64,000 nucleotides of DNA from Candidatus Zhuqueibacterota bacterium (GCA_049322915.1 JBMOPW010000007.1:276246-340245), one strand, 5' to 3'; positions 7,401 to 34,705 are shown, counted from the stretch's first letter. Translations and numbers: made by a program. Notes: a model not told the origin generated them from the letters alone.

Positions 7401-7434
7401 TATGAGCAAAAAAGTTTGACACTACGAACGAAGT

Positions 7435-7888: not shown

Positions 7889-8024
7889 TTAGATATATTT
7901 TTTTCTTCGTGCCTTTGAGGCTTTGTGGCTCGCCAGTTACGAATATTCATTTAAAAATATTCATAATGAAATGATTCTAACCTTGAACCCTGAACCAGCC
8001 AACCTGAGTAGTTGCTATCTGGAT

Positions 8025-9414: not shown

Positions 9415-9429
9415 ACCGGTGGGATTTGA

Positions 9430-13289: not shown

Positions 13290-13292
13290 ATT

Positions 13293-13772: not shown

Positions 13773-13774
13773 TT

Positions 13775-15148
13775 ATGCCGAAATCTGATTGCACAATTTA
13801 CAACATACGACACGTGCGCGTCGCTGCGTTGGCGTTTATTGTCGCGATACTCCTCACGGCTTGCAGCCATCAGGCCACGAACTCTCGCCGAAGCACAGCG
13901 CTGGAGGAGAGCTACAGCCTTACCAGCCAGGCAGTGAATAAGCGCATTGACAAAGAAAATAACATTCAGGCGGACGATCCTTTCGACGATCTGAAAGTGA
14001 CCATGACGTTCAACAATGCGCGGCTGACAGATGTCCTTAGAATTGTCGCCCGTGAATTTAAGGCGAATCTGGCGATCCCCAGCGATGAGAATAGCAAAGT
14101 GACAGTCGCATTGCAGAATGCGAATCTCTACGAAGCGCTAGCAATGATCCTTTCTGCGACCGATTATGCCTATGTTAAAAAAGGACAGGTGTTCGTCATT
14201 AAAAAAAATACAGAGAAAATATCAAGTGTCTATGCATTGAAATTTGTCAAGGCTGGAAGCATTGCAGAGATACTGGCCGGCATTACTGAAACGGCGAAGA
14301 TCAGCGCCGACGAATTGACGAATTCGCTTCTCGTTACCGATGAAATTGTGAACATGGCCACCTTTGATGAGATCATCGATGAGTTGGACAAATTCCAGCC
14401 AGCGGTTTTGATCGAGGCGGATATTTTCGAGATTTCACTGGAGAACCTGAGAACCCTGGGTATCGAATGGGGGATTCATTATTTTCAAGATCCCAACGCG
14501 ATGGGCGCAGCTAGTCCAAAGGCGTTATCCGCGGAGGGGTTGGTCTTCAGCTACAGCAATTTAAAGGCGCCGCAGATCGAGTTGATGCTCAGAGCGTTGC
14601 GAGGCAGCAGCTATTCCGAATTGCTGTCCAAACCGCGAATCGTCACATTGAACGGCGAGGAAGCGAAGATGCTTGTGGGTGAACGCGTGCCGTACGTTAA
14701 AGCCTCGACAGCCACGGCAACCGGGAATGTGTTGCAGGAAGTGGAATTTGTCGATGTAGGCATTCTGCTGAAAGTGACGCCCAGGATCATTGCAGAGGAA
14801 AACATGGTCATCATTGATGTGCAGCCAGAAGTCAGCGAAGTGCTGGATAAAACCATCCAGGGCGTTCCGCGAATTGGCACCCGGGAAGCTAAAACGCGTG
14901 TGGCAGTTAAAAATGGCGAGACAGTTATTATTGGGGGACTGATAAAAAAGGATAAACTGTGGGCAGATTCGGGTACCCCTTTGTTAGAAAAAATACCACT
15001 GATCAACCTGTTTTTTAAAAACAGGACAGATAGTAAATCCGAACGGGAATTGATCGTTTTTATCACCCCGCACATTTTAACAAAGGAGCATTATGACATC
15101 ATGAAAGTTGAGCACAAAAGCGCCAAAAGCACTCATGATAACCGATGA
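13775..15148 (+). CDS. pilQ: Secretin (PilQ/GspD family), probably lipoprotein-type
   Basis: LTAC lipobox, STN/N domains, VLIEADIFE, LSKPRIVTLNGEEA, DVGILLKVTPRI, GETVIIGGL, P.L.KIPLI..FF, ELIVFITPHI. Confidence 0.93.
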   Translation: MPKSDCTIYNIRHVRVAALAFIVAILLTACSHQATNSRRSTALEESYSLTSQAVNKRIDKENNIQADDPFDDLKVTMTFNNARLTDVLRIVAREFKANLAIPSDENSKVTVALQNANLYEALAMILSATDYAYVKKGQVFVIKKNTEKISSVYALKFVKAGSIAEILAGITETAKISADELTNSLLVTDEIVNMATFDEIIDELDKFQPAVLIEADIFEISLENLRTLGIEWGIHYFQDPNAMGAASPKALSAEGLVFSYSNLKAPQIELMLRALRGSSYSELLSKPRIVTLNGEEAKMLVGERVPYVKASTATATGNVLQEVEFVDVGILLKVTPRIIAEENMVIIDVQPEVSEVLDKTIQGVPRIGTREAKTRVAVKNGETVIIGGLIKKDKLWADSGTPLLEKIPLINLFFKNRTDSKSERELIVFITPHILTKEHYDIMKVEHKSAKSTHDNR

Positions 15149-15532
15149 CCGCGACGAATCCCGCATGTTATCCGCCTGAACTTCACTCTGAGAGTTGCTC
15201 TTTTCTGCCGTCCATGTGAAACTGAATCGATGATATGAGACCAATTTGCTACGGATTTTTGGACAATATCTGGTCAGTTCATAGCAAAAATTAGCCCAGC
15301 CTCGGTCGGGTGCGGCTTCATTACCAAACTGTAATCCGATTATGTCTCTGAAATGTAATTTTTGCTGAAAGTTAAGCAATAAATCTGTGAAATCAATAGC
15401 AACACTCATGAATTCAAAAAGATAAAATGAAAAGTAGAAATACTGTTTCAAATATAAATAGTTATATGCAAATCGCATTTCGAAAAAGTAATTGCAGATA
15501 GAGTTAAATCTTTGAGTTACTTCAAAAAGTGC

Positions 15533-15561
15533 TTGATTGTTTTTTACTTGTTTTTTATTAT
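15533..15561 (+). promoter_or_regulatory. Putative sigma70 promoter TTGATT-N17-TATTAT
   Basis: Near-consensus boxes with 17-bp spacing in the AT-rich region upstream of 15966. Confidence 0.45.
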
Positions 15562-15830
15562 ATAATCGTTTTATGATGCATGTCTTATGTATTTATGAAG
15601 AATGCGTCCATCGAAATGCAGACCATCCATTGCTCAGGGGGAAAACCTGTCGGAACGATCTATCTTAGAAGATTGATTTTACGCTAAATACAGGTACTCT
15701 AATTTAACGGATGTCAGAGAGCTATTAGCGTGTCTCACGAGCAGTGTCCCGTTTCACAGTGATTTTCGCCCATTTCTGATCTTGATTATTAAAGGCATAG
15801 CCTGTTTTTCAAAAATGATAACGAGAATTT

Positions 15831-15846
15831 TGGAATGATAATTGCG
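15831..15846 (+). promoter_or_regulatory. Putative sigma54 -24/-12 promoter TGGAATGATAATTGCG
   Basis: GG-N10-GC spacing, resembles TGGCACG-N4-TTGC; about 120 bp upstream of the adhesin ATG. Confidence 0.45.
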
Positions 15847-15965
15847 TTCTATTTGGTTGTGTTGATTTTGAAGTAAGTTTTGCAATTCGCTAATTTAATG
15901 AAGTCCATTGAGCTACTTTCTTATTTTTTTAATTGACAACTTAGGTCTACAACTGCAGGTGATGC

Positions 15966-18900
15966 ATGAACTGGCAACGGACAAAAAGATTATCTTATTT
16001 ATTTTTCCTCGGATTTATCCTTTCTATTCGACCCTCTGTCGCTTTGCTATTCGGCCAGCAAGCTGGAACCAGCAGAATATCCGGTTATATTTTCAATAAA
16101 TTTGGTCAGCCGCTTTCCGGCGTAGAAGTGCGGGCAATCATCTCCAGCGGCTCCTACTACGACCGCATTGTTTACTCATCCGCCGACGGTAGTTTTGACA
16201 TTCAGTCCCTGCCAGTCGGGCAATATTATCTCCGAATTTTCAACAAGCTGGGGTATTTAGATGTCTATTATGAAAATGCCCTCAATAAAGAAGACGCCAC
16301 GCTCATCAAGTTGAATTATGATCAGCATGTTCAGGATGTCAATTTCTACCTTGAAAGCGGCGGATTTATCAGCGGCACGATTTTCGATGAAGCGGGGGCG
16401 CCCATTACGTCGAGCAGTTCAATCGTTTTTTTCGAGGCGGAAAACAACAATCCCCGGGGTGTCATTAACAGTATGAAAGATGGCAGTTATGTCAGCCCTG
16501 CGCTTCCAAGCGGACCTCATATTTTAAAAGCCTCTTCATTCCCGTCAGGTTATATTTTGACATATTATCAAAACGTCAGCACTCAGGATAGCGCGACGGT
16601 CGTCCATGTGACCCAGGGAGATACCGTGAAAAACATCGATTTCTACCTGCGAAAAGGCGGTGCAATTTCCGGTTTCGTGAGAGGCGATACCCCGGAAAAT
16701 GAGCCGGTATTCAATGCCTGGGTTGTGGTGACTGACTGGGATAATGGTGAATGGAGCTCGGAATGCAAGACGGACTCGGACGGATATTACCGCGCCGCTG
16801 GTCTCAGGCCGGGAAATTACCGGGTCCTGGTTTACAGCGTTGATCCATTGCTATATCACACTGAATTTTATCGTGATACGCCGCAGCGGGAAAATGCAAT
16901 ACCGGTCACTGTGATCGGGGAGGAAACGACCAGCGACATCAATTTCAATCTTCAGCCGGTGAGAAGGCTGGTGACCGGGAACGAGTTCATTGAGTTTTGC
17001 GTCAGCGACCGTTACCCTGGAACCAATCTCTCCTTATGGATTACCGGCGGGCTGCCGGAAAGTAACACCGATAACGACAAGCCGCTTCTATTCGGCCATC
17101 CCTACCCGTACACGTCGTTCACGACCGTTCGGATCGATGGCGAGGATATCATTTTTGGATCCGAGAAGGGCGACATGGTCGGCAACGTTTACATCAAACC
17201 GGATGGAAAAAGTATTGAACGTACCTGGAAGTATAAGAAAATCTCCATTGTGCAGAAAATAACGTTGACGGTGAGCGAATGGTCCGAGACGAAATATGAA
17301 GACACCGCCCAGATCCAATACGTCATCACCAATGACGACGGGATAAGTCATCAGGTTGGGTTGCGCATTTTGCTTGATACCATGCTGGGGGATAATGACG
17401 CTGCTCCGATTCGTACTTCGGATTTTACTTATTCGAATTACGAGCGCTCGTTCAATTCGCACAATATGCCTGACTGGTGGGCTGCGATGGAGGGCGACAA
17501 AAGGAAGACGATTTTTTCCGCCCAGGGCACTTTGGTCGGTTACGGAGCGACGGCGCCGAATCAATTCTCAACCGTCAATTGGAGCAATGCGTTCAAAACG
17601 CTGTGGGATTATCGGACCAGCGGCGATGTCGGCGTGATTTACGACAGCGGTGTGGCCATGTGGTGGAACCCGGAACCCATTGCGCCGGGCAACACAAAGA
17701 TCGTCTGTACCTATCTGGGATTGGGAGAGATGTTCCCTGATAATTCACCCCCGTATACCGCGCACCACAGCCCGGCCAGGGACAGCAGCTATGTGGCGCT
17801 TCATTCGAATATTCAGGTGGATATTCTGGACGATTACATGGGCGTGGATTCGACGACAATCGTCATGACCGTGAATGGGCAGGTAGTAAATCCTACCATC
17901 AGCGGCAGCCTGTCTCAGTTCACGGTCAGTTTTGATCCGGAAGAGAATTTTAACTACAATGACACGGTGCGGATTAAAATCGATGCTTCCGATTTGGCTA
18001 TTGAGCCCAATATTATGCCGACCGACGAGTACGTCTTTTACGCAGTCAGGGATACGCTCCCTCCCTACGTGAAAGATGTATATCCGCTTGCCGGACTATC
18101 CCGGGTGAAATCCGATACCAGCCTGTCCCTTACCATTTGTGATGACCATTCCGGCGTGGATTCTGCCTCGATAGAAATCCGAATGGACGGCGAGGTCATT
18201 CGTCCGAACATTACAGGCTCTCCGCAGCAGTATTTCATTCGCCATCCGTTTGAACCTCCTTTTGGCGAAATGGACACGGTCATGGTCTTCATCCGGGCGA
18301 AAGATAGAGTGGCGCCGGCAAATCCGGTCACCATGCAATATCTGTTTGTGACGGAAAGGGATTCCCTGTCGCCGCGGATCACTTTTACCTATCCGTCAAA
18401 TAACCAGGTGCATATCCCACGCGATACCACGATCACAATTCGTTTGGAGGATGATTACACCGGCATTGACCTGCAATCGATTCGCATGATGGTGAACGGA
18501 ACGTTGGTTGAACATGAATTGCGCGTTTCAGATTCGCGACATGTAGAGATTGCTTATAGACCGGACCACGGGTTTCGATTTAACGATCGGATTTCAGTGC
18601 AGATCGAGGCGCGCGATCTGGCGCGGCACCCAAACGCAATGCCGCCGTTCGGATTTAACTTCAGCGTGGTGACTGATGTGGAGCCGCCATTCATTACCAG
18701 CCAGACGCCGGTTCCGAATGATACGACTGTTGTGCCCAGCCCTCAAATCGTGATCGGGATAGCGGATGAAAAAGCCGGGGTGGATTCTCTTTCCATCCGG
18801 CTATGGCTGAATGAAAATTCTGTCCCATTTCAACTGACCGGAAATAAATTTCAGTATCTGGTAAATTACCAGATCCCATCTCCATTGAATTATCTCGAGT

Positions 18901-20549
18901 GGGTGCAGGTGACTTTTGTCGCTGCCGATTTAAGCAGTCCGGCCAACGCAATGGATACGCTCCGCTATCAATTCCGAATCACGCGCGAGAAAGATGTCAC
19001 GTCGCCCTATGTGGTGCAATGGCAGCCAGTTCCTGATGCGGATGATGTTTTACCAGATTGTATTATTTCTTTCCATATCAGGGATGACATGGCCGGAGTG
19101 GATAGTAGTTCGGTTATATTAAAAATTAATAATAAATTGACAACGACGCGGCCAAAAATTACCGGTGGTTTACATGATTATCTGGTTCAATATCAGCCAC
19201 CTGAGCCATTTCAGTATGGACAAAGCATTGTGCTGCATGTCGATGCTCAGGATCTGGCGGTTGATGCACCAAACAAAATGAAAACAGACAGTTGTCATTT
19301 TTCAGTGCTGCCCGATATCGCGCCGCCAAAAGTGGAGTGGATTTCACCGGGCCTGCCTGGCACGCATATTGCATTAAATTCACATTTTACTTTCGAAATT
19401 TTCGATGAGCTGACTGGCGTCGATATTCGGTCCCTTCGATTTACGTTTCAGGATGAAGAAGTAGAGCCTGACCTGTCGGGCGAGCGTGGCCGAATTCGCG
19501 TGGAGTTCACTCCGGAAAGCCCATTGAATTACAATCAGCAGATTAAATGGGTCGTTACGGGGCGCGATCTTGCTTCGCCATCCAACCGGATGACGGATAC
19601 ATTGTTTTATTTCTATTCATTGGAAGATCACGACGCGCCGTATACGATGAACCATCAACCGGCAAAAAATCAACCCGACGTCAGATTTGATAGTGGAATA
19701 CGCGTTGATGTCTGCGATGATATTGCCGGTGTGAATTTAAGCTCGATTCGGATGACTGTAGAGGGGGATACAGTTCCTCCTCTCATTACAGGAACGTCCC
19801 AGTGTTACCAGCTCTTCTTTCAGCCTGAGCCACCTGGCTTCCGGCCGGGTCAGCGCGTGCGGGTAACTCTTGGCTGTTCCGACCTATCCAATCCACCGCT
19901 TAAAATGGACACAGACAGCTATGAGTTTTTCATTAAAGATGTCTATCCTGATTTTTATTTCGATTCCTTCAATTCAGATAATGCAAAAATATTGGTTCAT
20001 CAACCGATAACATTCTCAGGGGTCTTCCGGGTTGCAGTGGCTCCGACATTTGATTCGGTCATTGTTAAAGTCTGGGACAATAATCGGCCCGTTTTATCCG
20101 AGGCTTTTCCTCCGCTCCCGATTGATGCGGAGATGGAGATCGCCGGCAATGTCGCTTTTCAAACCAGTGGCTCGCATCGGTTACGAGTGACAGTGGATCC
20201 GGATAACAAGATAAGAGAGGCGGATGAAAGTAATAACAGCGCTGAAATCGTGATCAATGTAATTGAAGGGGAACTCATCGTCCGGTCCAATCCGTTTACT
20301 CCGAACGGCGACGGCATAAATGACGAGGTGGCATTCAATTTCGAAAAAATCGCGGTGACGAAACCATCGCTGACATTGTTCGATGTTTCCGGCCGATCGA
20401 TAACGGCGCTGACAGAATACCACAGCTATAAATTTACCTGGGACGGCAGAGATCGGTACGGCAACCAGACGCAACCTGGTGTTTACTTATACCTGCTCAA
20501 AGACGGCGAAAAAGTCGTGGCTAACGGCTACGTCGTGATTGCACGCTAA
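15966..20549 (+). CDS. Large secreted Ig-repeat surface protein with CARDB and T9SS type-B-like C-terminal domain
   Basis: Signal peptide, 3 carboxypeptidase-regulatory-like repeats (ISG..), a central unique domain, 7 tandem ~100-aa Ig-like repeats (D..PP...P...GVD..SI...A.DLA..PN.M), CARDB (VDPDNKIREADESNN), and C-terminal NPFTPNGDGIND...WDG......PGVYLY....GYVVIAR. Confidence 0.88.
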   Translation: MNWQRTKRLSYLFFLGFILSIRPSVALLFGQQAGTSRISGYIFNKFGQPLSGVEVRAIISSGSYYDRIVYSSADGSFDIQSLPVGQYYLRIFNKLGYLDVYYENALNKEDATLIKLNYDQHVQDVNFYLESGGFISGTIFDEAGAPITSSSSIVFFEAENNNPRGVINSMKDGSYVSPALPSGPHILKASSFPSGYILTYYQNVSTQDSATVVHVTQGDTVKNIDFYLRKGGAISGFVRGDTPENEPVFNAWVVVTDWDNGEWSSECKTDSDGYYRAAGLRPGNYRVLVYSVDPLLYHTEFYRDTPQRENAIPVTVIGEETTSDINFNLQPVRRLVTGNEFIEFCVSDRYPGTNLSLWITGGLPESNTDNDKPLLFGHPYPYTSFTTVRIDGEDIIFGSEKGDMVGNVYIKPDGKSIERTWKYKKISIVQKITLTVSEWSETKYEDTAQIQYVITNDDGISHQVGLRILLDTMLGDNDAAPIRTSDFTYSNYERSFNSHNMPDWWAAMEGDKRKTIFSAQGTLVGYGATAPNQFSTVNWSNAFKTLWDYRTSGDVGVIYDSGVAMWWNPEPIAPGNTKIVCTYLGLGEMFPDNSPPYTAHHSPARDSSYVALHSNIQVDILDDYMGVDSTTIVMTVNGQVVNPTISGSLSQFTVSFDPEENFNYNDTVRIKIDASDLAIEPNIMPTDEYVFYAVRDTLPPYVKDVYPLAGLSRVKSDTSLSLTICDDHSGVDSASIEIRMDGEVIRPNITGSPQQYFIRHPFEPPFGEMDTVMVFIRAKDRVAPANPVTMQYLFVTERDSLSPRITFTYPSNNQVHIPRDTTITIRLEDDYTGIDLQSIRMMVNGTLVEHELRVSDSRHVEIAYRPDHGFRFNDRISVQIEARDLARHPNAMPPFGFNFSVVTDVEPPFITSQTPVPNDTTVVPSPQIVIGIADEKAGVDSLSIRLWLNENSVPFQLTGNKFQYLVNYQIPSPLNYLEWVQVTFVAADLSSPANAMDTLRYQFRITREKDVTSPYVVQWQPVPDADDVLPDCIISFHIRDDMAGVDSSSVILKINNKLTTTRPKITGGLHDYLVQYQPPEPFQYGQSIVLHVDAQDLAVDAPNKMKTDSCHFSVLPDIAPPKVEWISPGLPGTHIALNSHFTFEIFDELTGVDIRSLRFTFQDEEVEPDLSGERGRIRVEFTPESPLNYNQQIKWVVTGRDLASPSNRMTDTLFYFYSLEDHDAPYTMNHQPAKNQPDVRFDSGIRVDVCDDIAGVNLSSIRMTVEGDTVPPLITGTSQCYQLFFQPEPPGFRPGQRVRVTLGCSDLSNPPLKMDTDSYEFFIKDVYPDFYFDSFNSDNAKILVHQPITFSGVFRVAVAPTFDSVIVKVWDNNRPVLSEAFPPLPIDAEMEIAGNVAFQTSGSHRLRVTVDPDNKIREADESNNSAEIVINVIEGELIVRSNPFTPNGDGINDEVAFNFEKIAVTKPSLTLFDVSGRSITALTEYHSYKFTWDGRDRYGNQTQPGVYLYLLKDGEKVVANGYVVIAR

Positions 20550-20560
20550 ATGGAAAAATT

Positions 20561-22333
20561 ATGATCGCCTGGAAAAAAATACTGATCGGGATTGTCATTA
20601 TTTCCGGAATTCTGGACGGCGGGAATCCTCGTTCCTGCGTCTCGCAGAATATTCTCACAGCCGACCCTGCCGATATCTTTGATTCAAAAGCGATTTTTTT
20701 GAACTCGGCTGTGATTCCTTTTCAGAGACGCCATGTTGCGCTGGGAATGCAAGTGTATCAGATGGGTTTTATGAAAAGCAATGAATTGGGTTTGAATACC
20801 GGCTATTTCAGTCTTTCCCTGGCTGAGTCGCTTCCGTTGTATCTGAATTTCGGATTGTCCGGACAAAATTTTTCAACGCCGTTGTACGATCAGACAAATT
20901 TTTCATTACATTTCGCCGCCAGGCCAATGGAGCGGATATCCGTAGGGATTAAGTACAATGTGTTCACCAAATCGTATCACCAGAGGTATTTCGACCTGGT
21001 GGATATCAACGATCCTGTCTTTGCGAATGGCACGACCAAGTTTGCCCAGAGTATCGGCGCCGGGGTGCTGTTTTTCCCGCTGTCTGAGCTTGCGCTGGGT
21101 CTGGCAGTTGATCATATCAATCGGCCGGATGTTTCTCTTTCCGATGACGTGTTCCGGCAACCTCTGGCGTACGACATGGGGATTCGGTATTCGTACAGAC
21201 ACTTTAGTAGTTCCATTCATCTGAATTATATGCAGGAACACTGGCAGTTCAATTGGATGCTGGAAACGCGGCCGACGTCCATAAGCTCATTCAGGCTGGG
21301 CTTGATTCAGAAGGCTGCGGATTTTCAGGTCGAGTTGAGCGTGCTGGATGGTTTTTCAATCAACTATGTTTTTAATTACCCGCTTTACGAGGTAAGCCAG
21401 ATTAGCAGTGGCAGTCATCAGATTAACTTCATTTATGAGTTGGGACGGAGAACTCCGCTGGATGAGTTTCAATACACCAGGTATGATGAAGGCAAATCAC
21501 CCATTTTCGACCTGCCGTCTCAATTCTTTGTTGAACTGAATGATGCGACCCTTGAAGTTCAGTCACAAAAAATTCTTCGCCGGATTGAAAATGATGTGCC
21601 CGGTAATGCGCTTGCAAATCTGACTGAAATGGAATTGGCTCTCAATGATTCCATCAGCCATCCGCAGGATTTTTTTCAGCACGGACAGGTGGAAGAGCCG
21701 TTGGATCGTTTGAGCGGGAAGCCAAAATATTCGACTAAGTATGATAATTATTTAGCAGAATTGGCCGATATTTTTTCCGGAGATGGGGATGAGTCCATCA
21801 AAATCCTGACCGAAACTGCATCTCGAACACGAGCGGAAGATTTGCTTCGGGACAAAATCTACAATGCGACCAAATTGGCGGCCACAGAAAAGGTTGTCCA
21901 GTTAAATGAAACCGAAGCCACCCGCAAAGTGAAACCGGGCGATGTACCAAAAAGCAGCTATGCCTCGGCGATTGAACTCAATCCGGAAAAGGCTGTCTTT
22001 TCTGTCACATCGCTCAAAATGAGGGCGTATCGGCGAGAATGGCGGCTTGTCATACTGGACGGAGATGAAAAGGAAGTCAAAAACTTTTCCGGAAAAAACG
22101 ATGTTCCGGAAACAATTGAGTGGGATTGGAGGAACCAAAACGGCAGGTTGCTTCAGCCGGGCGTCTATGTGTACCGCCTCGAATGGTTCGATAACGAGGG
22201 CAAGTTGCGACAATCGCGAGCGGCGTCGTTCAGCGTTGAAAAGCGCTCGCGCACATTTTACATTGATGTGTGCGCATCGCCCAGGAAAATCGAGCCCGAA
22301 GGAACCCACGTTGAAATTAAACTGACGCAATAG
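20561..22333 (+). CDS. PorP/SprF-like outer-membrane beta-barrel with C-terminal FlgD-Ig-like domain
   Basis: Signal peptide, alternating beta strands, LGLAVDHINRPDVS and SGSHQINFIY motifs as in the PorP/SprF family, C-terminal WDWRNQNG..LQPGVYVY; directly follows a type-B CTD gene. Confidence 0.75.
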   Translation: MIAWKKILIGIVIISGILDGGNPRSCVSQNILTADPADIFDSKAIFLNSAVIPFQRRHVALGMQVYQMGFMKSNELGLNTGYFSLSLAESLPLYLNFGLSGQNFSTPLYDQTNFSLHFAARPMERISVGIKYNVFTKSYHQRYFDLVDINDPVFANGTTKFAQSIGAGVLFFPLSELALGLAVDHINRPDVSLSDDVFRQPLAYDMGIRYSYRHFSSSIHLNYMQEHWQFNWMLETRPTSISSFRLGLIQKAADFQVELSVLDGFSINYVFNYPLYEVSQISSGSHQINFIYELGRRTPLDEFQYTRYDEGKSPIFDLPSQFFVELNDATLEVQSQKILRRIENDVPGNALANLTEMELALNDSISHPQDFFQHGQVEEPLDRLSGKPKYSTKYDNYLAELADIFSGDGDESIKILTETASRTRAEDLLRDKIYNATKLAATEKVVQLNETEATRKVKPGDVPKSSYASAIELNPEKAVFSVTSLKMRAYRREWRLVILDGDEKEVKNFSGKNDVPETIEWDWRNQNGRLLQPGVYVYRLEWFDNEGKLRQSRAASFSVEKRSRTFYIDVCASPRKIEPEGTHVEIKLTQ

Positions 22334-22545
22334 CGTTGCTCGTCTGGTTGATGAAACTCATTCAAAAACCATTAGGTAACAGAAAATAGTCCTCGACACA
22401 AGAGGCGATTTCGATGAGAGGGAAGTTCATGATGTAGCGAACGTGCGCTGAAGGTCGGAACACGTTTTGCCCGTCCGAAACGGAGACGGACAATACACTA
22501 CACGGGTAACAGGAGTTTTAATGCGATAGTTGAAGGAGCATTCCG

Positions 22546-24123
22546 ATGTTTTTAAAGAAGAAAACAATTTTGTTGATGCTGATTTTTTTGTTATTGCCGG
22601 GCGCGGAATTCATCTGGGCCGTTCCGCAGACGGCGCAGCCAGATTCAATAATGAACAGTAATGCCAATACTGCGTTAGATCCAGCAACTCTGACGCAGAT
22701 CAATGGCCTGCAATCCCTCTGGGATATAACGCTCCTGGCTGGATTCTTTCGTTGGTTTATCAACGGGACATTTATTATTGGTATGCTTCTCATTATGTAT
22801 AAAGTCTCGGAGTTGGTCCTGGATTCCAGGCATTCCCGTGATCTGGAGAAATTGAATTTGCGCCGGGCATCGCTGGTAGATGTGATGCGTGTTATTAAGA
22901 ATAACAAGCAAAGTATGTTGAGTCAATTGTTCAAATATATGATGGACCTGTATCAGACCAGACGATCGGCTGAGGGATTCAATAGTGAGATCAGCGATTT
23001 TGTCCAGATCCAGCAGGAGCGATTTCAGGCAGTGCAAACAAAAGTGGCTTTTTTCTCGGAGGCAGCCGGGGCGCTGGGATTGTTAGGTACGGTATGGGGG
23101 ATGTTCATCACCTTCTTTGGCGGGGATCTGGAAAAGCAGAAAATCCTGAGCGGAATGGGTGTGGCCCTGGTTACCACCATTATGGGATTGATTGTGAGCC
23201 TTATTCTCAATTTATTCATGATGCAAACCTTTAGCTATTTCAGAAGACGGATCGATAAAGTTTCGGATCTGGGAAATCAATTCCGGCTGAGATTGCATCA
23301 GTTGGAACAGACCCTGGACAATTCCATTCCTGATAATGGCGAAGATTCCGATAATGGTGATTCAATCAACAAGTCCAATTATGAAATTTCAAAAGCTGTA
23401 ATTGATGCAGTGGATCGACAGCTTAAAAGACCGGATCCAATTTTCGATTTTGTGAGCGATGCGGGCGCGAAGACGGCTGCCGAAAATGGCGGATTTAAAA
23501 TCGTTCCGATTTCAGGTGATAATCAGTCGGTGCGCGTGAATTCACGTCTGGAAAAACCGTTTGTTGTACAAATTTCATCCAACAACGGGAATGGATTATC
23601 GGACCAACCAATCCTTTTTGAAGTCGTGGAAGGTAATGGTAAATTTAGCTCTGGCCGAAAGCAGGAGGAGGTCCTCAGCGATGCCAGTGGATTGGCCCAG
23701 TCGCATCTCATCCTGGGCAGCTTGTCTGGTGAAAATAAAGTGAAAGTGAAAGTGAAAGGCAGTTCCAATTCGGACTTTTATTTCAAGGCATGGGGAGAAC
23801 CAACGGAGCCGGATCAATTGGTCTATGTGTCCGGCAATCATCAAAACGGACCGTGCGGCGCTGAGTTGAAAGAACCTTTTGCGGTGAAAGTCATTGACAA
23901 ATTCAATAATCCGATTCCGGATTGGATCGTATCGTTCAAGGTCGAGGACGGCAAGGGATTTTTCCCTGAGAAAAAGAGCGAGTTTCAGACCCGCACCGAT
24001 CAGAATGGGCTTGCAGAAGTCTACTTTACATTGGGTAAAAAGCCCGGGTTCAATTCGGTGAAGGCATCATTGAAAGGACTGAAGAAATCCAAAATTTATT
24101 TTGAAGCTCTTGGACAGGGATGA
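22546..24123 (+). CDS. MotA/TolQ/ExbB proton-channel subunit fused to two C-terminal bacterial Ig-like (Big_1-type) domains
   Basis: LGLLGTVWGM and GMGVALVTTIMGL channel motifs, then two repeats starting SGDNQ / SGNHQ with PF.V.V.D..NP.....V.F.V..G.G.....TD..GLA. Confidence 0.88.
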   Translation: MFLKKKTILLMLIFLLLPGAEFIWAVPQTAQPDSIMNSNANTALDPATLTQINGLQSLWDITLLAGFFRWFINGTFIIGMLLIMYKVSELVLDSRHSRDLEKLNLRRASLVDVMRVIKNNKQSMLSQLFKYMMDLYQTRRSAEGFNSEISDFVQIQQERFQAVQTKVAFFSEAAGALGLLGTVWGMFITFFGGDLEKQKILSGMGVALVTTIMGLIVSLILNLFMMQTFSYFRRRIDKVSDLGNQFRLRLHQLEQTLDNSIPDNGEDSDNGDSINKSNYEISKAVIDAVDRQLKRPDPIFDFVSDAGAKTAAENGGFKIVPISGDNQSVRVNSRLEKPFVVQISSNNGNGLSDQPILFEVVEGNGKFSSGRKQEEVLSDASGLAQSHLILGSLSGENKVKVKVKGSSNSDFYFKAWGEPTEPDQLVYVSGNHQNGPCGAELKEPFAVKVIDKFNNPIPDWIVSFKVEDGKGFFPEKKSEFQTRTDQNGLAEVYFTLGKKPGFNSVKASLKGLKKSKIYFEALGQG

Positions 24124-24146
24124 GAGCGCGGGAGAAATACTAATTT

Positions 24147-24560
24147 ATGATGAACCAGGGTGGAGTAATACTTCGACTCATCGATGTCACGCTTCTTTTG
24201 TTGTTCAGTTTTATTTCGGTCAGTGAAATAAGTGAGAGAAGTTTCATTAAACTACCGAAAAGCACTCAGACGTTGCCAACCCTTCCCGATAAAGAGGATC
24301 TATTGGTTGTTGGGATAACGCCGCAGGGGACATTTCTTGTCGAGGACGAAACCCGGGTGCTCAATAATTTTCAGGCTTTGGAAGAGTATATTATCAATAA
24401 GAACAATAAAAATTTACGCGAAAATATTGCAACCCGTGTTCGCATTCGCGCTAACTGGAACACTCACATGAAATACGTGGTCGCGCTGGTCAATTTGTGC
24501 GATAGTCTGAAAATACCCAAAGGTCTGGATGTCGTTCTCAAGGAAGGCAATACATTATAA
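24147..24560 (+). CDS. ExbD/TolR-family subunit 1
   Basis: LIDVTLLLLFSF TM with the conserved Asp, IKLPKS, and VRIRA...V.LV periplasmic fold pattern. Confidence 0.85.
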   Translation: MMNQGGVILRLIDVTLLLLFSFISVSEISERSFIKLPKSTQTLPTLPDKEDLLVVGITPQGTFLVEDETRVLNNFQALEEYIINKNNKNLRENIATRVRIRANWNTHMKYVVALVNLCDSLKIPKGLDVVLKEGNTL

Positions 24561-24576
24561 TGTGTGAGTTATTATC

Positions 24577-24987
24577 ATGGTAAAAGGTGGTTTAATCATT
24601 CGCCTTATTGATGTGGTGTTAATTGTCTTATTCAGTTTTTTGAACATCACTGATATTGACCGTAAAGGTCAAATTAAATTACCGTCGATTGGACCGAGCA
24701 AAAGTCAGAAAGTAGCACAGCAACTTCTGTTTCTCACCATTGAAAACGGGAATACGTTTGTATTAACGGACGGCCAGCAAGCCATTGCCCAATTGGACAG
24801 TCTCCCAAAGCTGGAGCGAATGATAGCAAATCTGAATGACCAGTATAAACTGGAACAACGGCGGATGGTTCTGGTGATTGAGCCAGCTATGGAATCAATC
24901 ATACAGTCCACGATCGACGTCATGGATATCTGTGAGAAATACAATATCCCAAAAAGTGTATCCTATTCAAAAATTGAACTCAATTAG
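24577..24987 (+). CDS. ExbD/TolR-family subunit 2
   Basis: LIDVVLIVLFSF TM with the conserved Asp, IKLPS, IDVMDIC. Confidence 0.85.
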   Translation: MVKGGLIIRLIDVVLIVLFSFLNITDIDRKGQIKLPSIGPSKSQKVAQQLLFLTIENGNTFVLTDGQQAIAQLDSLPKLERMIANLNDQYKLEQRRMVLVIEPAMESIIQSTIDVMDICEKYNIPKSVSYSKIELN

Positions 24988-24999
24988 GTCAGGACGCTC

Positions 25000-26208
25000 A
25001 TGGATTGGATTCTGGAAAAAAGTAGTGAGTTTAATTTCAGAGCAAAGCTCTTGAATTATCGTCGAGTGAGCGAATTGCTCGTTATTATATTCTTGATTGG
25101 AATGTACGTCTATCTGGAACATGCCGCTGTCCCTAATTTTGGGTATCAATTTGCCAGAGCTTATAAAGAGATCGATTGGGTCAAGTTTTCAGAGGATGTG
25201 ATGCCACCGGTGCAGCGACAGATCATCCCAATCCCGACAACTCCCGGCGAAACGACTCTCATGACACCTGAGCTTTCAACTACTCTGACCAAATCGGAGT
25301 GGTCGGAGATATCGGATTTATTAAAAAATGATATCAGTAGTGTTTTGAATTCAAAGGAATCAGCTTCGTTGGTGCAACCGCCTGATGAGAAGTTTGAGTA
25401 TTCTCAACTGAAAAATCTGTATGCGGATCCGTCGATGAAAGAAGGACAAACGAGGGTTCAGGACAATCAGGCAGAATTGCATAAAATCAGTTCTCCGATT
25501 TCACTGCTTTCATCAGTAAAGACGAACGCGAGTCAGGCGAATGAATTACCAATCGACGATTATGATATTGCCATTCCGGTTGATCGGGATCGCTACAGTG
25601 AATCGGATAGACCCCAAATTCTTACAACGACCACCACAGCAGCGACGATTGGAATTCCCTCGACTGGCGCTCCGGGTGTGACAATTGGGAAGTCAGCATT
25701 CGCGTCTAATAGACGTTCGACGATTGGAACGGACAAAGTGATACCTGAGACAGGTCCGGGGGGCGGCCAGGTCAGCAGCAAATACACCACATACGTCAAG
25801 CAAAATATGGCCATCATTATCGACGATCTGATGAAGTGGATGAACAGCAACAAGGGATCATTTAACCGGGTGACTGAAAGTTTTATGATGTATGAAAGCG
25901 GTGACCTCACATCGAAAACTGATTATGTTTATAATGGCCGTAAATTTGAGTTATACTTGCTGTACAAGCCCAATGTGAAAGAGATTCGAATTTGTATGGT
26001 GGAGGGAAATCGTTCTACCATGCTCATAGATGATGGGTTCAAAAAGCAAAGCAATTATCTCAGAACTGGCGATGTCTCACGTGATGGAAATGATTCCATT
26101 GTTTTGTTCAGCACCAGTCAGCATCCGGCCTCCGAACAGATGACAAATGAATTTTATCAGATCTTTCTAATGTGGTGGGAAAAAGCAAAGAAATCCATTG
26201 GCTTGTAA
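25000..26208 (+). CDS. Bitopic membrane protein with TonB/TolA-like architecture (TM, S/T/P-rich linker, C-terminal globular domain)
   Basis: Single N-terminal TM LLVIIFLIGMYVYL, long low-complexity region, ~135-aa C-terminal domain; 12 bp after the second exbD. Confidence 0.6.
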   Translation: MDWILEKSSEFNFRAKLLNYRRVSELLVIIFLIGMYVYLEHAAVPNFGYQFARAYKEIDWVKFSEDVMPPVQRQIIPIPTTPGETTLMTPELSTTLTKSEWSEISDLLKNDISSVLNSKESASLVQPPDEKFEYSQLKNLYADPSMKEGQTRVQDNQAELHKISSPISLLSSVKTNASQANELPIDDYDIAIPVDRDRYSESDRPQILTTTTTAATIGIPSTGAPGVTIGKSAFASNRRSTIGTDKVIPETGPGGGQVSSKYTTYVKQNMAIIIDDLMKWMNSNKGSFNRVTESFMMYESGDLTSKTDYVYNGRKFELYLLYKPNVKEIRICMVEGNRSTMLIDDGFKKQSNYLRTGDVSRDGNDSIVLFSTSQHPASEQMTNEFYQIFLMWWEKAKKSIGL

Positions 26209-26285
26209 TTGCGTCGGCAATAATTTGGCTTCAGTATGATGTTCCATTTCGTATCGAACGATTCATACAGGATTGCACGAAAATT

Positions 26286-26963
26286 ATGAAATTAAAATTT
26301 CTCATATTTCTATTATGTTTCTGGGCGATGTATGCGTCAGGGCAGAGCGTCGATAATGGCCAGGGCAAAGTGTCCCAAATTTCTGTGCCGGTTATGAGCA
26401 TCACAGATACTAAATTGATGACCATGTTGATGGATGAATTTTTCATCCCGGAAACATTGGTGACCCGGATGGAGATAATCGATGTGGGGCTCAACGGATT
26501 TGGCGCGCGAGATCTGGTTAAAGTCTACCCTTCAGCCGAAATTTATTTCATCGAATTCATCTCCAATAAAGCCCAGCAAGTAATGAACGACTGGAAGTTT
26601 CGAGCTAATTTTCAAATAGTCACCCAAAATGCGGACGCCAGCGTTTTGTCCAACTACGGCGAAAACAAACCGGCATACAATATTTTCATCTCGTTGCTGA
26701 GGAGCATGGAGCGAAATTACAGTGATTATCCCATCAAAATTAAATTGGAGCGGGATTCTTCCACTGTTAAATTCGAGATGTGGGAATATAACGAAACAAA
26801 GCTGAAGTTCGATCCCCGGTCTACACCCCTGGAGAATGATATTTTGACCAGGCAAGCCAAATCCATTGTCGATAGTACCTACTATGACTGCATTTTTATA
26901 TACAAAACAGTTGTCGATACTGTATACCTACCACAACGCAGATTAGAAACCGTTGCCAAGTGA
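26286..26963 (+). CDS. Hypothetical secreted/periplasmic protein
   Basis: MKLKFLIFLLCFWAMYASGQ is a Sec signal peptide, so the start is placed at ATG 26286; last gene of the run. Confidence 0.75.
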   Translation: MKLKFLIFLLCFWAMYASGQSVDNGQGKVSQISVPVMSITDTKLMTMLMDEFFIPETLVTRMEIIDVGLNGFGARDLVKVYPSAEIYFIEFISNKAQQVMNDWKFRANFQIVTQNADASVLSNYGENKPAYNIFISLLRSMERNYSDYPIKIKLERDSSTVKFEMWEYNETKLKFDPRSTPLENDILTRQAKSIVDSTYYDCIFIYKTVVDTVYLPQRRLETVAK

Positions 26964-27529
26964 CGGAGAAAATTTTAGAGCCAAATGAATTGCATCAAAG
27001 GAAGAGCAGGGTGTGATTAAAAACACCCCGAATCAACTGGTGCGATTGTATTTTTAATGAGATACAACTGTCATTTTTAAAGTGCTCAGTTGGAGCGAAA
27101 TTCAGGCGTGTTTGCCAATTGTATTTCGCTATCCAGGGTTCTGTCTGCAAATGACCAATGTAGAAAAGATCGGCTATTATTAAAATCCATGAAACAAACA
27201 TTGTGATTTCGTTGTTTATATTGTACCAAATTCATTGCATGTCAGGCCGAATTGAACGCTGGCAGTGACTCTGTATTTTCGATGCTATCGCATGAAAGAG
27301 AACAGCGCACAGCCATCCATCGAAAGGAGGCGTATCGAGTCTATTTTGGATAGCGAGCCTGGATAGGGACATCAGCGAATTGAGTCGAGATTGCTGATGA
27401 GGTATTCTTTCTGCAAATTTTACTTTGACTTAATTTATCTCGTAGTTGTTAAAGTTATTTAATCAAAGTGACGATTAATAAAATAGGCAACTTGATTGTA
27501 AATAATCTTTAACAAACAATGAGAAAAAT

Positions 27530-28171
27530 ATGGTAGTCATTGAATCCCAATACGCGCTATTCCAGGAAATCGATCATCTCAATACGAACTTCATTCCCGG
27601 AATACATAAAATGAGGCTGACGATTGATACCATATCGTCGGAGGATAATTACAGACGGGCTTATCCAGCCATTGTGAAACAGTTTGTCCACCTTTTCCCT
27701 AGACTGAAGCAACATTCCTGCTGCTATTCGAAAATCGGCCAGAGTGATCTGATTCATGGCGATTTGATTCCCATGATCAACGAAGGAAATTGTATCTTGG
27801 ATATCATCCATATTGTGGAACATGTCATTATTGATTTGCAGTGCTCGTTATCCGGAATGAAAATATGCAGTGGTATTACATGCAATTATAAAGAGCCGAG
27901 AACTCGCTACGATATTTTTGTAGAATGTATCGATCAAAAAGTGGGATTGAGCGCTGCGCTTACGGCAGTGGAAATGGTCCAAAAAATTCTGGCGTGCGAT
28001 TATTTGAAATACCCATTTGACGAATTCATTTCGGTCAATGACCTTCTGCGAGATCAGAGCCCGGAGCAGATTCAACTGAATTCCATCGTGGAAAGCTGTG
28101 AGCCATATATCTTTGATTTTGGTAAAGATTTAATCAGACGAGTGTTAAATTTCTCCATGTCTAAAAATTGA
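27530..28171 (+). CDS. Stand-alone cyanophycin synthetase N-terminal-like domain protein
   Basis: LFPRLKQHSC...HIVEHVIIDLQ..SGM...G.T....Y.I..E matches the CphA1 N-domain pattern LP.L.EH.C...GH..EHVALELQ..AG. Confidence 0.7.
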   Translation: MVVIESQYALFQEIDHLNTNFIPGIHKMRLTIDTISSEDNYRRAYPAIVKQFVHLFPRLKQHSCCYSKIGQSDLIHGDLIPMINEGNCILDIIHIVEHVIIDLQCSLSGMKICSGITCNYKEPRTRYDIFVECIDQKVGLSAALTAVEMVQKILACDYLKYPFDEFISVNDLLRDQSPEQIQLNSIVESCEPYIFDFGKDLIRRVLNFSMSKN

Positions 28172-28291: not shown

Positions 28292-28353
28292 GGAAATATC
28301 TAAATTTGTAAAGAGTAAAAACCAGATCAGTTGCGATATTGAGAGAAGACTGT

Positions 28354-30420
28354 ATGAGTAATCCATTAGTTTTGGTGGCCGATGGAGACCCCAAAAACCT
28401 CCAGATTCTGAAAGAGAATCTTGAAGCGTCTGGATTCATTGTCATCACTGTTTCCACCGGAAATCGAGCCTGGGAAGAAATACAGCGCACTCCGCCTAAG
28501 CTTATCCTGAGTGAGTTGAATCTTCCTGGCATGACCGGCTATCAATTACTCGAACGGTTACAGGCCGATCCCAATACTGCATCCATTCCTTTGATTTTTT
28601 TAACCAACCAGCGTGAAATTCAGCAGCGAGTCCGCAGTTTCGAATTGGGCGCCAAGGACTATCTCGTAAAACCCCTCCATGTGAAAGAAGTGATCGCTCA
28701 CATCCGAATGGTGTTGCGCCGACTGGAACGCCGCAAGGTAGAACAATTAGAGACATACATGAAATTTTCCGGTCGTCTCGATCAGTTGAATCTCGCCGAT
28801 CTGATTGAGAGTTTCGGCGTGGAGCGAAAGACTGGTGTTTTGACGTTGAGTAATGGACGCCGGACAGGCCAGGTGTATTTCCGCGAAGGAACGGTTGTAA
28901 ACGCCAGCCTCGGTGATGTGAAACTGGAACAAGCTGTCTACCAAATGTTTTCCTGGAAACATGGATTTTTTAACATGGTTTTTCGCGATGTCGATGTGCC
29001 GGACGGCATCTCAATCAGCAACCTGGGCCTGCTGCTTCAAGGCATGAAGCGGATGGAAACCCGCGAAAATTTGATTGCTCAACTCTCTTCGCCGAAAACA
29101 GCTTTTATCATCACTCCGACATTTAAGAACATTGTCGAACGCAAGAAAGTCGGCGATGCAGTCTCCTCATTCATCCAATTGCTGGATGGTAAACGGGATG
29201 TGGAACAAATAATCGACGATAGCGGTGCAGATGACCTGGTGACGCTCAAGAGAATTATACGACTGTATCAACAGGGATTCATCAAAGCGACGATCCCGCC
29301 GGCGAAAAAAGAGGTGACGCAGCAGCAGCCCGTTATTGAGCCGAAGAAAATTGAGCCTCGAAAACCTGTCGAGACCGCTGAGGAGATACTGCGTCGAATG
29401 GAAAAACCTGTAGCGCCTGATGAGGCCACCCCGGCCATTCCGGACGACAACGTGTTTGAAGTCGCTCCTCGCAAAGAGCGTAAAAATTTAGAGGACGAGA
29501 TCAAGCCGATTGTGGAGCGAATTCAGGCGGAGCGCCGGGAAGTCTACATTCCAGAGACTGAAGAAGAATCAGAAGAACAGTTGATTCAGCAGGATGAGCC
29601 ACCGACAACCGGATACGCTCGGTTTGCAGAGGAAGACGTGCAGGACTCATTCCCTGTTTCCCATACAGAAGATGTTCATGCACCTGTAGCCGAAGTCGAA
29701 GAAGAAATTCTGGCCAAGGCTGAAAAGCAGGAAACGTTTGTCGATGAAGAATTGCTGCAACAGCCGATCGAGGAGAATATTGAGGCAGAGCCTGTTGTTA
29801 ATCTTCCAAAGAAAGAAAAAATCCCGGTTGCCATGTCAGATACCAGCCGAACGGTGGCTTCCCGAGCACCTACTGACAGGAATAATATCATGCTCATCAG
29901 CGTCGATGAGGATTGCAAAGATGAGTTGATGGATGTTCTCACCGGGAATAAATTCCAGTCGAAGTCCATCAAAGAGCTGGAAGATTTACGGCTGGAAATT
30001 GGCAAGATTAATTTTGAAAAATTCCCGGCCTATAATCTGATCGCTATTTCTTTGGATAAACAATTTAATATATTCCTGGAGTCGGTTAAAAACAGCATCA
30101 TTGGCAATGTTTTCACATTCGATTGCTCCCGTCAGGAAACCTGGGAATACACAAATTATCTGATCCATTCGATCTGGCATAAATTTAAAATTCCCTATGT
30201 GATTGCAGTCATCAATCTGCATGAGCACAATTCTATTTCCATGGACGTAATTCGGTATCAATTGAATCTCGATATGGATGTGGCGCTCATCGCATGGGAC
30301 CCTGTGGATAAATCCTCGATTCGGAAAGTGATGTCCACAGTGATAAAAGGCGACCTGCGAAAGGAACAAAATAAAACAGCAGTCATGTTGGATTCTTTGG
30401 TAGAAAAAATGATGATGTAA
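28354..30420 (+). CDS. REC-DUF4388 protein with acidic linker and C-terminal degenerate small-GTPase-like domain
   Basis: Receiver (VLVADGD, LILSE, GAKDYLVKP), DUF4388 (FSGRLDQLNLADLIE...KTGVL...GQVYFREG..V.A), E/P-rich linker, C-terminal alpha/beta domain resembling 31780-32277. Confidence 0.8.
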   Translation: MSNPLVLVADGDPKNLQILKENLEASGFIVITVSTGNRAWEEIQRTPPKLILSELNLPGMTGYQLLERLQADPNTASIPLIFLTNQREIQQRVRSFELGAKDYLVKPLHVKEVIAHIRMVLRRLERRKVEQLETYMKFSGRLDQLNLADLIESFGVERKTGVLTLSNGRRTGQVYFREGTVVNASLGDVKLEQAVYQMFSWKHGFFNMVFRDVDVPDGISISNLGLLLQGMKRMETRENLIAQLSSPKTAFIITPTFKNIVERKKVGDAVSSFIQLLDGKRDVEQIIDDSGADDLVTLKRIIRLYQQGFIKATIPPAKKEVTQQQPVIEPKKIEPRKPVETAEEILRRMEKPVAPDEATPAIPDDNVFEVAPRKERKNLEDEIKPIVERIQAERREVYIPETEEESEEQLIQQDEPPTTGYARFAEEDVQDSFPVSHTEDVHAPVAEVEEEILAKAEKQETFVDEELLQQPIEENIEAEPVVNLPKKEKIPVAMSDTSRTVASRAPTDRNNIMLISVDEDCKDELMDVLTGNKFQSKSIKELEDLRLEIGKINFEKFPAYNLIAISLDKQFNIFLESVKNSIIGNVFTFDCSRQETWEYTNYLIHSIWHKFKIPYVIAVINLHEHNSISMDVIRYQLNLDMDVALIAWDPVDKSSIRKVMSTVIKGDLRKEQNKTAVMLDSLVEKMMM

Positions 30421-30516
30421 TTGCAGCACCTGCTGGCATTGTCTCAGCAGTTAGAAACAGAGAGAGCGCCTTGCGATGCAATTTTCGAATCGCAAGGTTT
30501 TTTACTCAATCAGGTG

Positions 30517-34665: not shown

Positions 34666-34705
34666 GTGTGATTTTCCCGCCTGTTCGTTATTGAGTGTAT
34701 ACCGC

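Follow-up and report, generated by a model that had tools for sequence, protein, structure and literature searches.

We analyzed a 64,000-nucleotide stretch of DNA (hereafter the window) from Candidatus Zhuqueibacterota bacterium (GCA_049322915.1, JBMOPW010000007.1:276246-340245), in which positions 15,966–26,963 hold a module of seven open reading frames (ORFs), all co-oriented on the + strand in the ORF listing of the window. In order, they encode a cargo adhesin with a type IX secretion system (T9SS) sorting domain, a carrier of the PorP/SprF family, an ExbB/TolQ-type stator subunit, two ExbD/TolR paralogs, a bitopic protein, and a secreted protein. An earlier reading of this DNA, made from sequence alone (hereafter the sequence-only reading), had proposed seven co-oriented genes with these contents; the ORF coordinates match its proposal, and Pfam agrees for the cargo, the barrel, ExbB, and both ExbD proteins. 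Matches to NCBIfam equivalog and subfamily models (TIGR04131, TIGR03519, tolQ, tolR, and exbB2) were all below threshold, hence we regard the module proteins as divergent members of their families. Neither Pfam nor NCBIfam has a family for the 402-residue bitopic protein or for the secreted protein, listed at 263 residues.

Proteins encoded by the module

The cargo gene (15966–20549, + strand) encodes a protein of 1527 residues with a signal peptide, CarboxypepD_reg-like domains, Big_5-like repeats, a CARDB domain, and a C-terminal type-B CHU_C sorting domain. A hydropathy scan showed a hydrophobic N-terminus (residues 12–30), and about seven Big_5-like repeats of ~105 residues each follow one another at a spacing of 103–106 residues. 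The CHU_C domain (residues 1441–1525) scored 40.4 bits against a Pfam cut-off of 27, and the NCBIfam model TIGR04131 scored 25.2 against a cut-off of 35. In an alignment of 15 cargo C-terminal domains (CTDs), the motif FTPNGDGIND is invariant. The CHU_C score and the kept motif agree with the proposal of a surface protein with immunoglobulin-like (Ig) repeats and a type-B-like CTD. The cargo also has all three traits of a type-B substrate, namely a hydrophobic N-terminus, an adjoining PorP gene, and SprA in its own genome. Cargo proteins differ from locus to locus, with Big_5 repeats, FG-GAP together with Ig domains, HYDIN/ASH Ig arrays, or VWA; those tested all end in CARDB and CHU_C.

The carrier ORF (20561–22333, + strand; 590 residues with a signal peptide) begins 11 nucleotides past the cargo ORF. 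PorP_SprF (PF11751) covers only residues 112–292 of it, at 30.7 bits against a cut-off of 22.3, and 24 of 26 carrier homologues match the same family. Since the narrower model TIGR03519 scored 29, far under its cut-off of 90.55, the protein is best regarded as a distant PorP/SprF member. A predicted structure (mean pLDDT 75) has 14 strands at ~58–293, followed by a C-terminal arm of ~290 residues, in which a hairpin and two helices lead to a beta-sandwich of the FlgD-Ig/CTD-like kind at ~465–570. Foldseek matched this model to FadL/TodX (E ~1e-7) and to chains 8gl6_F and 6h3i_F, which are PorV in solved T9SS translocon complexes (target-normalised TM-score 0.54–0.55). The PorP/SprF-like barrel that had been placed 11 bp downstream of the adhesin is therefore upheld, both by the PF11751 score and by the 14-stranded model.

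Outer-membrane barrels with 14 strands have both termini in the periplasm; as the predicted barrel has 14 strands, the arm of the carrier would face the periplasm. The profile of the arm sandwich matched that of the cargo CTD (hhalign probability 97.9%, E 6e-13, 52 columns), and the match covers a FlgD-Ig-like core, with the FTPNGDGIND motif lying outside it. We did not find the Cys-x-Cys tail motif of SprF in the carrier, whose only cysteines are C26 and C571, nor a conserved Cys column in the carrier alignment. The carrier C-tail, ~290 residues long and folded in the model, is not the short periplasmic tail of the SprF type.

The ExbB gene (22546–24123, + strand) encodes a divergent ExbB/TolQ-type subunit of 525 residues with a signal-peptide-like N-terminus, three transmembrane (TM) segments (~66–92, 173–191, and 206–224 in the hydropathy scan), and a ~290-residue tail with Big_1 Ig-like domains. 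MotA_ExbB (PF01618) matched residues 122–232 at 54.9 bits, and Big_1 matched residues 445–513 at 38.4 bits (cut-off 34.9). With scores of 28.1 for tolQ (cut-off 221) and 23.3 for exbB2 (cut-off 135.35), the protein is not a TolQ/ExbB equivalog; a PDB sequence search with it returned nothing significant. Nevertheless, the TM2 motif GALGLLGTVWG (from G175), T182, and T211, G214, S218, and N222 of TM3 are invariant in all 60 module sequences. T182 and T211 presumably correspond to the Thr ring of E. coli ExbB. PADLOC was also run with the Zorya (ZorAB) defence system in mind, a candidate that we rejected: only the MotA/ExbB core resembled ZorA, in a weak and generic way (24 bits), and the other six proteins had no match.

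Downstream lie the two ExbD/TolR paralogs, paralog 1 (24147–24560, + strand, 137 residues) with Arg10 and Asp13 in its TM segment and paralog 2 (24577–24987, + strand, 136 residues) with Arg9 and Asp12. They match ExbD (PF02472) at 39.6 and 41.0 bits, respectively, and the NCBIfam tolR score was 33.9 against a cut-off of 127.3. R10 and D13 of paralog 1 are kept in 63/63 sequences, as are R9 and D12 of paralog 2 in 63/63, so the proposal that both subunits keep the TM Asp stands. Each complete locus holds one ExbD of either type, which would fit an ExbD1/ExbD2 heterodimer.

In a maximum-likelihood tree, a branch with SH-aLRT support of 100 separated 24 module ExbBs from the seven other MotA/ExbB paralogs of the genome; the module sequences came from several phyla and were chosen by similarity to the ExbB of the window, and the ordinary paralogs all came from one genome. 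The module ExbB thus forms a clade of its own rather than grouping with ordinary nutrient-uptake ExbB, and within that clade the window-type copies and those of the type found on contig C32 of the same genome (described below) form separate sub-clades. Because the Asp/Arg pairs of ExbD and the TM2/TM3 motifs of ExbB are invariant and the ExbB clade is separate, the motor is likely to be both working and dedicated.

The ExbB tail (residues ~235–525) follows TM3 and a run of basic residues, and is predicted to be cytoplasmic on that account. About 43 of 59 module ExbBs exceed 360 residues and bear such a tail; several Balneolales loci encode the tail in an ORF of its own, which has no signal peptide. 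In six loci from Balneolales and Melioribacteraceae (L072, L073, L074, L078, L079, and L085), ExbB is split at the same place, after a Lys-rich, A-rich stretch, and the Ig tail resumes in another frame; this could reflect two genes, a recurrent homopolymer assembly error, or a programmed frameshift. It is unusual for a stator to bear Ig-like domains on its cytoplasmic face.

The bitopic protein (25000–26208, + strand, 402 residues), a candidate force transducer, has a single hydrophobic segment (residues 26–44 in the hydropathy scan), hence its assignment as bitopic. In an alignment of 16 homologues, the N-terminus and TM segment are variable, the linker is unalignable, and the C-terminal ~135 residues, ending in FYQIFLSWW, are well conserved. 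The AlphaFold model has a TM helix, a disordered stretch at 48–267 (~220 residues; 7.7% Pro, 11.8% Ser, and 10.5% Thr), and a head at 268–402 with pLDDT mostly above 90, in which two helices accompany an antiparallel sheet of six strands and a long helix forms the C-terminal end. Its predicted topology is that of TonB and TolA, with an N-in single TM helix, a long periplasmic linker, and a globular head.

Searches for relatives of known transducers gave no clear match. We found no TonB_C or TolA_III match in Pfam or NCBIfam at E ≤ 0.01, and the profile of the 16 homologues gave nothing significant among PDB sequences, only a match at E 0.64 to a TonB linker region. Foldseek of the head against the PDB returned nothing at E ≤ 0.001; VIA-align against 48,161 chains ranked TipC2 (Z 7.5) and FcpB (Z 6.9) best, a range common for models with no true match. 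The ESM Atlas gave no usable feature matches, all TM-scores being below 0.3. A conserved TM His (the SHLS motif as defined in PMC12204202) was likewise not found, with a His in the TM segment of only 2 of the 16 aligned sequences. These two come from loci L018 and L025, in which the bitopic gene directly follows PorP; the other 14 have none. Of the earlier label “TonB-like”, the topology therefore survives, but TonB_C, the conserved TM His, and a Pro-rich linker do not, and the head resembles no known fold clearly. With the TM His/SHLS motif missing, the case for coupling between the bitopic protein and ExbB is confined to gene adjacency.

The bitopic family is small, with 279 cluster representatives (E ≤ 0.001) in a set of 1.84 billion proteins; relatives named by their source are all called “hypothetical protein”, and none has a Pfam domain. 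One library representative of 1330 residues (P0058) carries the bitopic head at 1144–1323 and may be a fusion or a gene-calling artefact. A complex prediction of mature PorP (29–590) with the bitopic head (255–402) gave an ipSAE of 0.00 in both runs with the tool verdict “no answer”, and counts neither way.

The secreted protein is listed from a GTG at 26172 (263 residues). A signal-peptide-like stretch, MKLKFLIFLL, begins at residue 39 of that ORF, hence the true start is probably the ATG at 26286, giving a gene at 26286–26963 (+ strand). In 42 related loci, a homologue is encoded on the downstream side of the bitopic gene. It has no Pfam match and no significant PDB match by sequence profile; the best ESM Atlas score, 0.89, is only a lead.

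The larger ORFs of the window (26 + 18 ORFs scanned, three repeats) gave no match to a TonB-dependent receptor, TolB, Pal, or OmpA family, as the sequence-only reading had said of the first three; the sole related match was an STN domain within a secretin. A scan of 15000–27700 for promoters and terminators was uninformative (it called 32 sites promoter-like, where 22.9 were expected, and 15 terminator-like, where 12.1 were expected), and so is its finding of no + strand terminator-like site in the gap at 22334–22545.

Gene order in relatives and the type IX secretion context

All related loci were found through the bitopic protein, the most specific marker of the module. Among 41 genomes from relatives of the window, 21 have it, and these belong to six of ten family-level groups; it was not found in the other four groups (12 genomes together). 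We examined 14 loci around these matches, and 11 of them have the full order cargo–PorP–ExbB–ExbD1–ExbD2–bitopic. The bitopic gene directly follows PorP in two more, and the last has the motor set with no PorP in the piece fetched.

A wider scan with a motif from the bitopic alignment, taking one genome per species, yielded 57 loci, of which 56 have a bitopic ORF and 47 have at least 5.6 kb upstream. PorP, ExbB, and ExbD lie on the same strand in 42 of these 47 loci (three others have PorP only, and two ExbB/ExbD only). The proposed linkage is thus found in relatives, with the cargo/PorP pair and the ExbB–ExbD–ExbD–bitopic set kept as one unit over several phyla. The 14-locus and 57-locus sets probably overlap in part (same contigs) and are not independent. 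Record titles of the 57 loci name candidate division KSB1/Zhuqueibacter/Coneutiohabitans, Calditrichota, Balneolales, Balneolaceae, Cyclonatronaceae, Rhodothermales, and Melioribacteraceae, a few of the labels being doubtful.

Spacing is tight in these loci. The median gap from PorP to ExbB is 12 nucleotides (≤50 in 34/45, overlapping in 11/45) and that from ExbD2 to the bitopic gene is 0 (overlapping in 23/50). In most loci a gene of ~500 codons for a TPR protein stands between the bitopic and secreted-protein genes, where the median gap is 1550 nucleotides; TPR matches were obtained in the four intervening ORFs tested and in one from the second copy of the module.

Whole-genome searches with PorP_SprF and MotA_ExbB uncovered this second, paralogous copy on contig C32 of the same genome (locus L013, G000:C32:80000-99999, minus strand, ~2562–13058). 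Its order is a long PorP with a FlgD_ig tail, a 310-residue ExbB with no Ig tail, a VWA protein whose CTD is CHU_C, an SdrD_B protein whose CTD is Por_Secre_tail, two ExbDs, a 382-residue bitopic homologue, the TPR protein, and a secreted-protein homologue, so that two CTD cargos sit between ExbB and the ExbD pair. The PorP open frames that adjoin a motor in this genome are 602 and 625 residues long, and the other two PorP matches 314 and 356 residues.

The genome that carries the window (96% complete) has SprA above cut-off. The PorV model gave 32 matches in it, one above the curated cut-off and ~30 weaker; the weaker matches are mostly N-terminal in open frames of 320–370 residues, which suggests a large PorV/FadL-like barrel family. 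GldM (TIGR03517) and GldL (TIGR03513) had no match in this genome. We tested five module carriers in all, namely this genome, a Balneolaceae isolate record, and Rhodothermales, Calditrichota, and Melioribacteraceae genomes. SprA was above cut-off in all five. The TIGRFAM models for GldL, GldM, and GldN matched in none of the five (the GldM model has a positive control, matching 30 of 121 sampled Bacteroidota genomes; the GldL and GldN models have none), and GldK was above cut-off in none, with only partial matches to the sulfatase-modifying-factor region. Within the reach of these models, the expectation of carriers that have sprA/porV and lack gldLM was therefore confirmed for SprA, GldL, and GldM in all five and for PorV in the window's own genome.

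SprA is far more widespread than the module: it was found in 40 of the 41 relatives, against 21 for the bitopic protein, and in 12/12 genomes of the four family groups that lack the module. On this comparison, the module is accessory rather than a general T9SS engine. The bitopic protein was found in 2 of the 121 Bacteroidota genomes, neither of them GldM-positive, and in 20 of 101 sampled genomes of the Rhodothermia class, in which GldM was above cut-off in 0/101. We discarded this anticorrelation as an independent test as the pattern tracks phylogeny.

One further locus of the window's genome (L028, G000:C4:86000-105999) holds SprA (2034 residues), then an M28 peptidase, then a canonical ExbB–ExbD–TonB set with TonB_C. 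This set was rejected as a conserved T9SS motor since it does not adjoin SprA in the four other carriers; in the Calditrichota genome, only the M28 gene follows SprA.

A candidate motor for type IX carriers

To our knowledge, the energising of T9SS outer-membrane carriers has been worked out only in Bacteroidota, with GldLM and the GldK/N track. The lineages in which the module is found belong to the Bacteroidota-related superphylum and possess the SprA translocon, with no recognisable GldKLMN. From the genes and domains that the module contains, its conserved order and catalytic residues, and its separate motor clade, we suggest, with a probability of roughly 0.55, that it is a cargo-dedicated accessory machine of type IX secretion, driven by the proton-motive force and pulling on the periplasmic arm of the carrier. 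Such a machine would point to an undescribed way to power surface proteins.

We propose the following mechanism, in which every contact between module proteins is one that we infer from conserved adjacency. The adhesin would use its type-B CTD to pass through SprA across the outer membrane, and would then be held by its cognate PorP/SprF-type 14-stranded carrier barrel, whose ~290-residue periplasmic arm ends in the CTD-like beta-sandwich. In the inner membrane, a dedicated stator of the 5:2 type, with an ExbB pentamer around an ExbD1/ExbD2 heterodimer, would drive the bitopic protein. The long disordered linker of the latter would span the periplasm, and its novel head might engage the carrier arm either directly or via the TPR protein and the secreted protein. 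Force on the arm would pull the loaded carrier off the translocon, or move or tension it in the outer membrane. By analogy with SprF–GldK, the output may be that the loaded carrier is extracted from the SprA translocon, or that the adhesin is moved laterally or put under tension; sequence does not tell export, anchoring, and movement apart.

Type-B CTD proteins bind cognate PorP-like carriers (PMC9143113), and in Flavobacterium johnsoniae a disulfide bond links SprF's periplasmic C-tail to GldK, coupling the carrier to the moving, GldLM-powered track (PMC12635249). As with SprB/SprF of F. johnsoniae and PG1035/PorP of Porphyromonas gingivalis, a CHU_C-type adhesin gene here precedes a gene for a PorP/SprF 14-strand barrel. 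As with SprB/SprF, the periplasmic C-terminus of the carrier is the likely coupling point to a proton motor of the inner membrane, and SprA is in the genome. However, the module carrier is ~590 residues long with a predicted folded arm in place of a short tail with Cys-x-Cys, and, unlike the SprF/GldK system, GldK, GldL, GldM, and GldN are undetected and the co-encoded motor is of the ExbB/ExbD type.

With Ton (ExbB–ExbD–TonB) and Tol (TolQ–TolR–TolA) the module shares a three-TM MotA/ExbB protein, an ExbD/TolR protein with a TM Asp, and, encoded downstream, a bitopic protein whose globular head sits on a long linker in the periplasm. It departs from both in that the head is not TonB_C, the TM His is not conserved, the linker is Ser/Thr-rich, there are two distinct ExbD paralogs, and ExbB has a signal peptide and a predicted-cytoplasmic Ig tail, with equivalog scores far under their cut-offs. 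Moreover, its outer-membrane partner would be a PorP carrier instead of a TonB-dependent transporter or Pal.

The Agl-Glt core complex of Myxococcus xanthus is encoded by aglR, aglQ, aglS, gltD, gltE, gltG, and gltC, and its GltG has TonB_C (PF03544) and FHA domains (PMC3169522, table). Both clusters combine one TolQ-like and two TolR-like genes, a bitopic transducer, and one or more TPR proteins, both are linked to outer-membrane proteins and a surface adhesin, and several copies per genome are possible. In contrast to GltG, the bitopic protein lacks TonB_C and FHA, and the outer-membrane part is a T9SS carrier; the resemblance, which we assessed against AglRQS/GltG by composition, is one of operon logic only.

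A further parallel is offered by vWA-headed, non-TonB transducers linked to motors, whose genes adjoin a TPR gene, a single tolQ-like gene, and two tolR-like genes that differ from each other (PMC12204202). Like them, the bitopic protein joins a TM helix to a non-TonB head by a disordered linker, and lies beside TPR, one TolQ-like, and two TolR-like genes. Unlike them, its head has no VWA match and no clear fold match, and SHLS/His is not conserved; nor is the vWA family linked to PorP or type-B cargo in sections 8 and 10 of PMC12204202. In our literature search, which covered papers without their supplementary files, we came upon no account of an ExbB/ExbD motor whose genes accompany a PorP/SprF carrier. 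The Zhuqueibacterota paper (PMC11683472) does not mention secretion, motility, gliding, ExbB, TonB, or pili.

Three other explanations have to be weighed. The module might be a static envelope tether like PorE or Tol-Pal, which would anchor the PorP–adhesin pair to the inner membrane or cell wall for load, the motor serving only for assembly or positioning. P. gingivalis PorP binds PorE, a periplasmic TPR/beta-propeller/OmpA protein, and PorE-like genes adjoin six F. johnsoniae porP-like genes (PMC9143113); PorE has also been interpreted as a fused CpoB-TolB-Pal and as a compact counterpart of Tol-Pal, which might work with a TolA/TonB-like transducer (PMC12204202). The TPR gene that follows the bitopic gene in most loci, including the paralogous one, would suit such a tether. 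Against this, no OmpA-like or peptidoglycan-binding domain was found in any module protein, the copy in the window has no TPR gene, and the invariant proton-path residues in two distinct ExbD paralogs favour an active motor over a passive strut. We consider the tether unlikely. Trans-envelope signalling is more doubtful still. Here, binding of the adhesin to a surface would be sensed via the PorP arm and the bitopic protein and relayed to the cytoplasm by the Ig tail of ExbB, much as in TonB-dependent transducers. The Big_1 tail is predicted to be cytoplasmic and is borne by most module ExbBs, and two DUF4388 response regulators follow the module here and in the closest relatives. Yet the regulator pair adjoins the module only in those relatives (2/14 and 2/57 loci), the paralogous copy and many relatives have a tail-less ExbB, and the module holds no sigma or anti-sigma gene.

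Lastly, an ordinary Ton (nutrient uptake) or Tol system might stand beside a T9SS cargo/PorP pair by chance. Pfam does place the three motor proteins in MotA_ExbB and ExbD, and exbB-exbD-exbD-tonB operons are common in the Bacteroidota-related superphylum. However, the adjacency is kept over several phyla with genes that often overlap, the module ExbB clade stands apart from the seven other paralogs of the genome, no TonB_C domain is present, no TonB-dependent receptor, TolB, or Pal is nearby, and a canonical ExbB–ExbD–TonB set with TonB_C sits elsewhere in the genome. Synteny and the tree already contradict this explanation, and we give it very little credence.

Several observations weigh against a motor that pulls on the carrier arm. 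Three of them are misfits to the model. In eight loci (L018, L025, L034, L037, L049, L052, L053, and the counterpart of L025), PorP is directly followed by the bitopic gene with no ExbB/ExbD, hence the PorP–bitopic pair can occur with no adjoining motor; the bitopic protein lacks the TM His/SHLS through which TonB and TolA bind their motors; and the predicted-cytoplasmic Ig tail of ExbB has no role in the model. Furthermore, the proposed contacts between module proteins are read from gene adjacency, and linkage was counted only where the bitopic protein exists. Gap and overlap figures depend on ORF starts set by a simple longest-ORF rule, and in the window the gap from PorP to ExbB is 212 nucleotides. 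The TPR gene is missing from the window's locus and from its nearest relatives. Finally, the GldM model misses all 101 Rhodothermia-class genomes sampled, and divergent GldKLMN homologues may therefore exist.

A bolder form of the proposal would have the module as a second, GldLM-independent way of energising type IX carriers, in which an ExbB5–ExbD1/ExbD2 rotary stator and a new family of transducers that span the periplasm drag the PorP carrier and its adhesin through the outer membrane. KSB1, Calditrichota, Balneolales, and Ignavibacteriota would then possess an adhesin-moving (gliding or surface-tensioning) machine, convergent with SprF–GldK and Agl-Glt, and the Ig tail of ExbB would be its link to an intracellular platform. 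We regard this as a speculative extension that is probably wrong in this full form.

Surroundings and implications

Directly upstream of the module (3732–15148, + strand) lies a type II secretion/type IV pilus-like cluster. It encodes a T2SSE ATPase, a T2SSF platform, four N_methyl/PilX pseudopilins, a 1102-residue protein with a PilM-like C-terminal half, two small proteins with no family, and the secretin. We considered it as part of the module and rejected it, for none of its 10 proteins has a homologue in the 14 or the 57 related loci (E ≤ 1e-10 in the 57), a weak result since many loci have little upstream DNA. Downstream, at 28339–31728 (+ strand), are the two adjoining response regulators, each with DUF4388; these too were set aside as module members, being beside it only in the closest relatives. 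The regulator pair and the next three genes are kept by the module in L014, L026, L030, and L031 only, all closest relatives. The seven genes were taken as the unit for these two reasons. Further downstream (33721–41751, + strand) is a lipopolysaccharide-core block with a lipid A acyltransferase, two family-9 heptosyltransferases, Sua5/YrdC, a low-molecular-weight phosphatase, and two DUF3108 proteins.

For lineages that have SprA and many CTD proteins but no detectable GldKLMN, the module is a testable candidate for powering some of the cargo. It adds two unnamed protein families, the transducer head and the secreted partner, as well as a form of PorP whose long arm is predicted to be periplasmic and an ExbB whose Ig tail is predicted to be cytoplasmic. 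If the motor truly pulls the PorP carrier, it would be the first link of the Ton/Tol motor class to type IX secretion; it would also enlarge the catalogue of non-TonB force transducers, and would suggest a route to surface-adhesin movement in several uncultured phyla.

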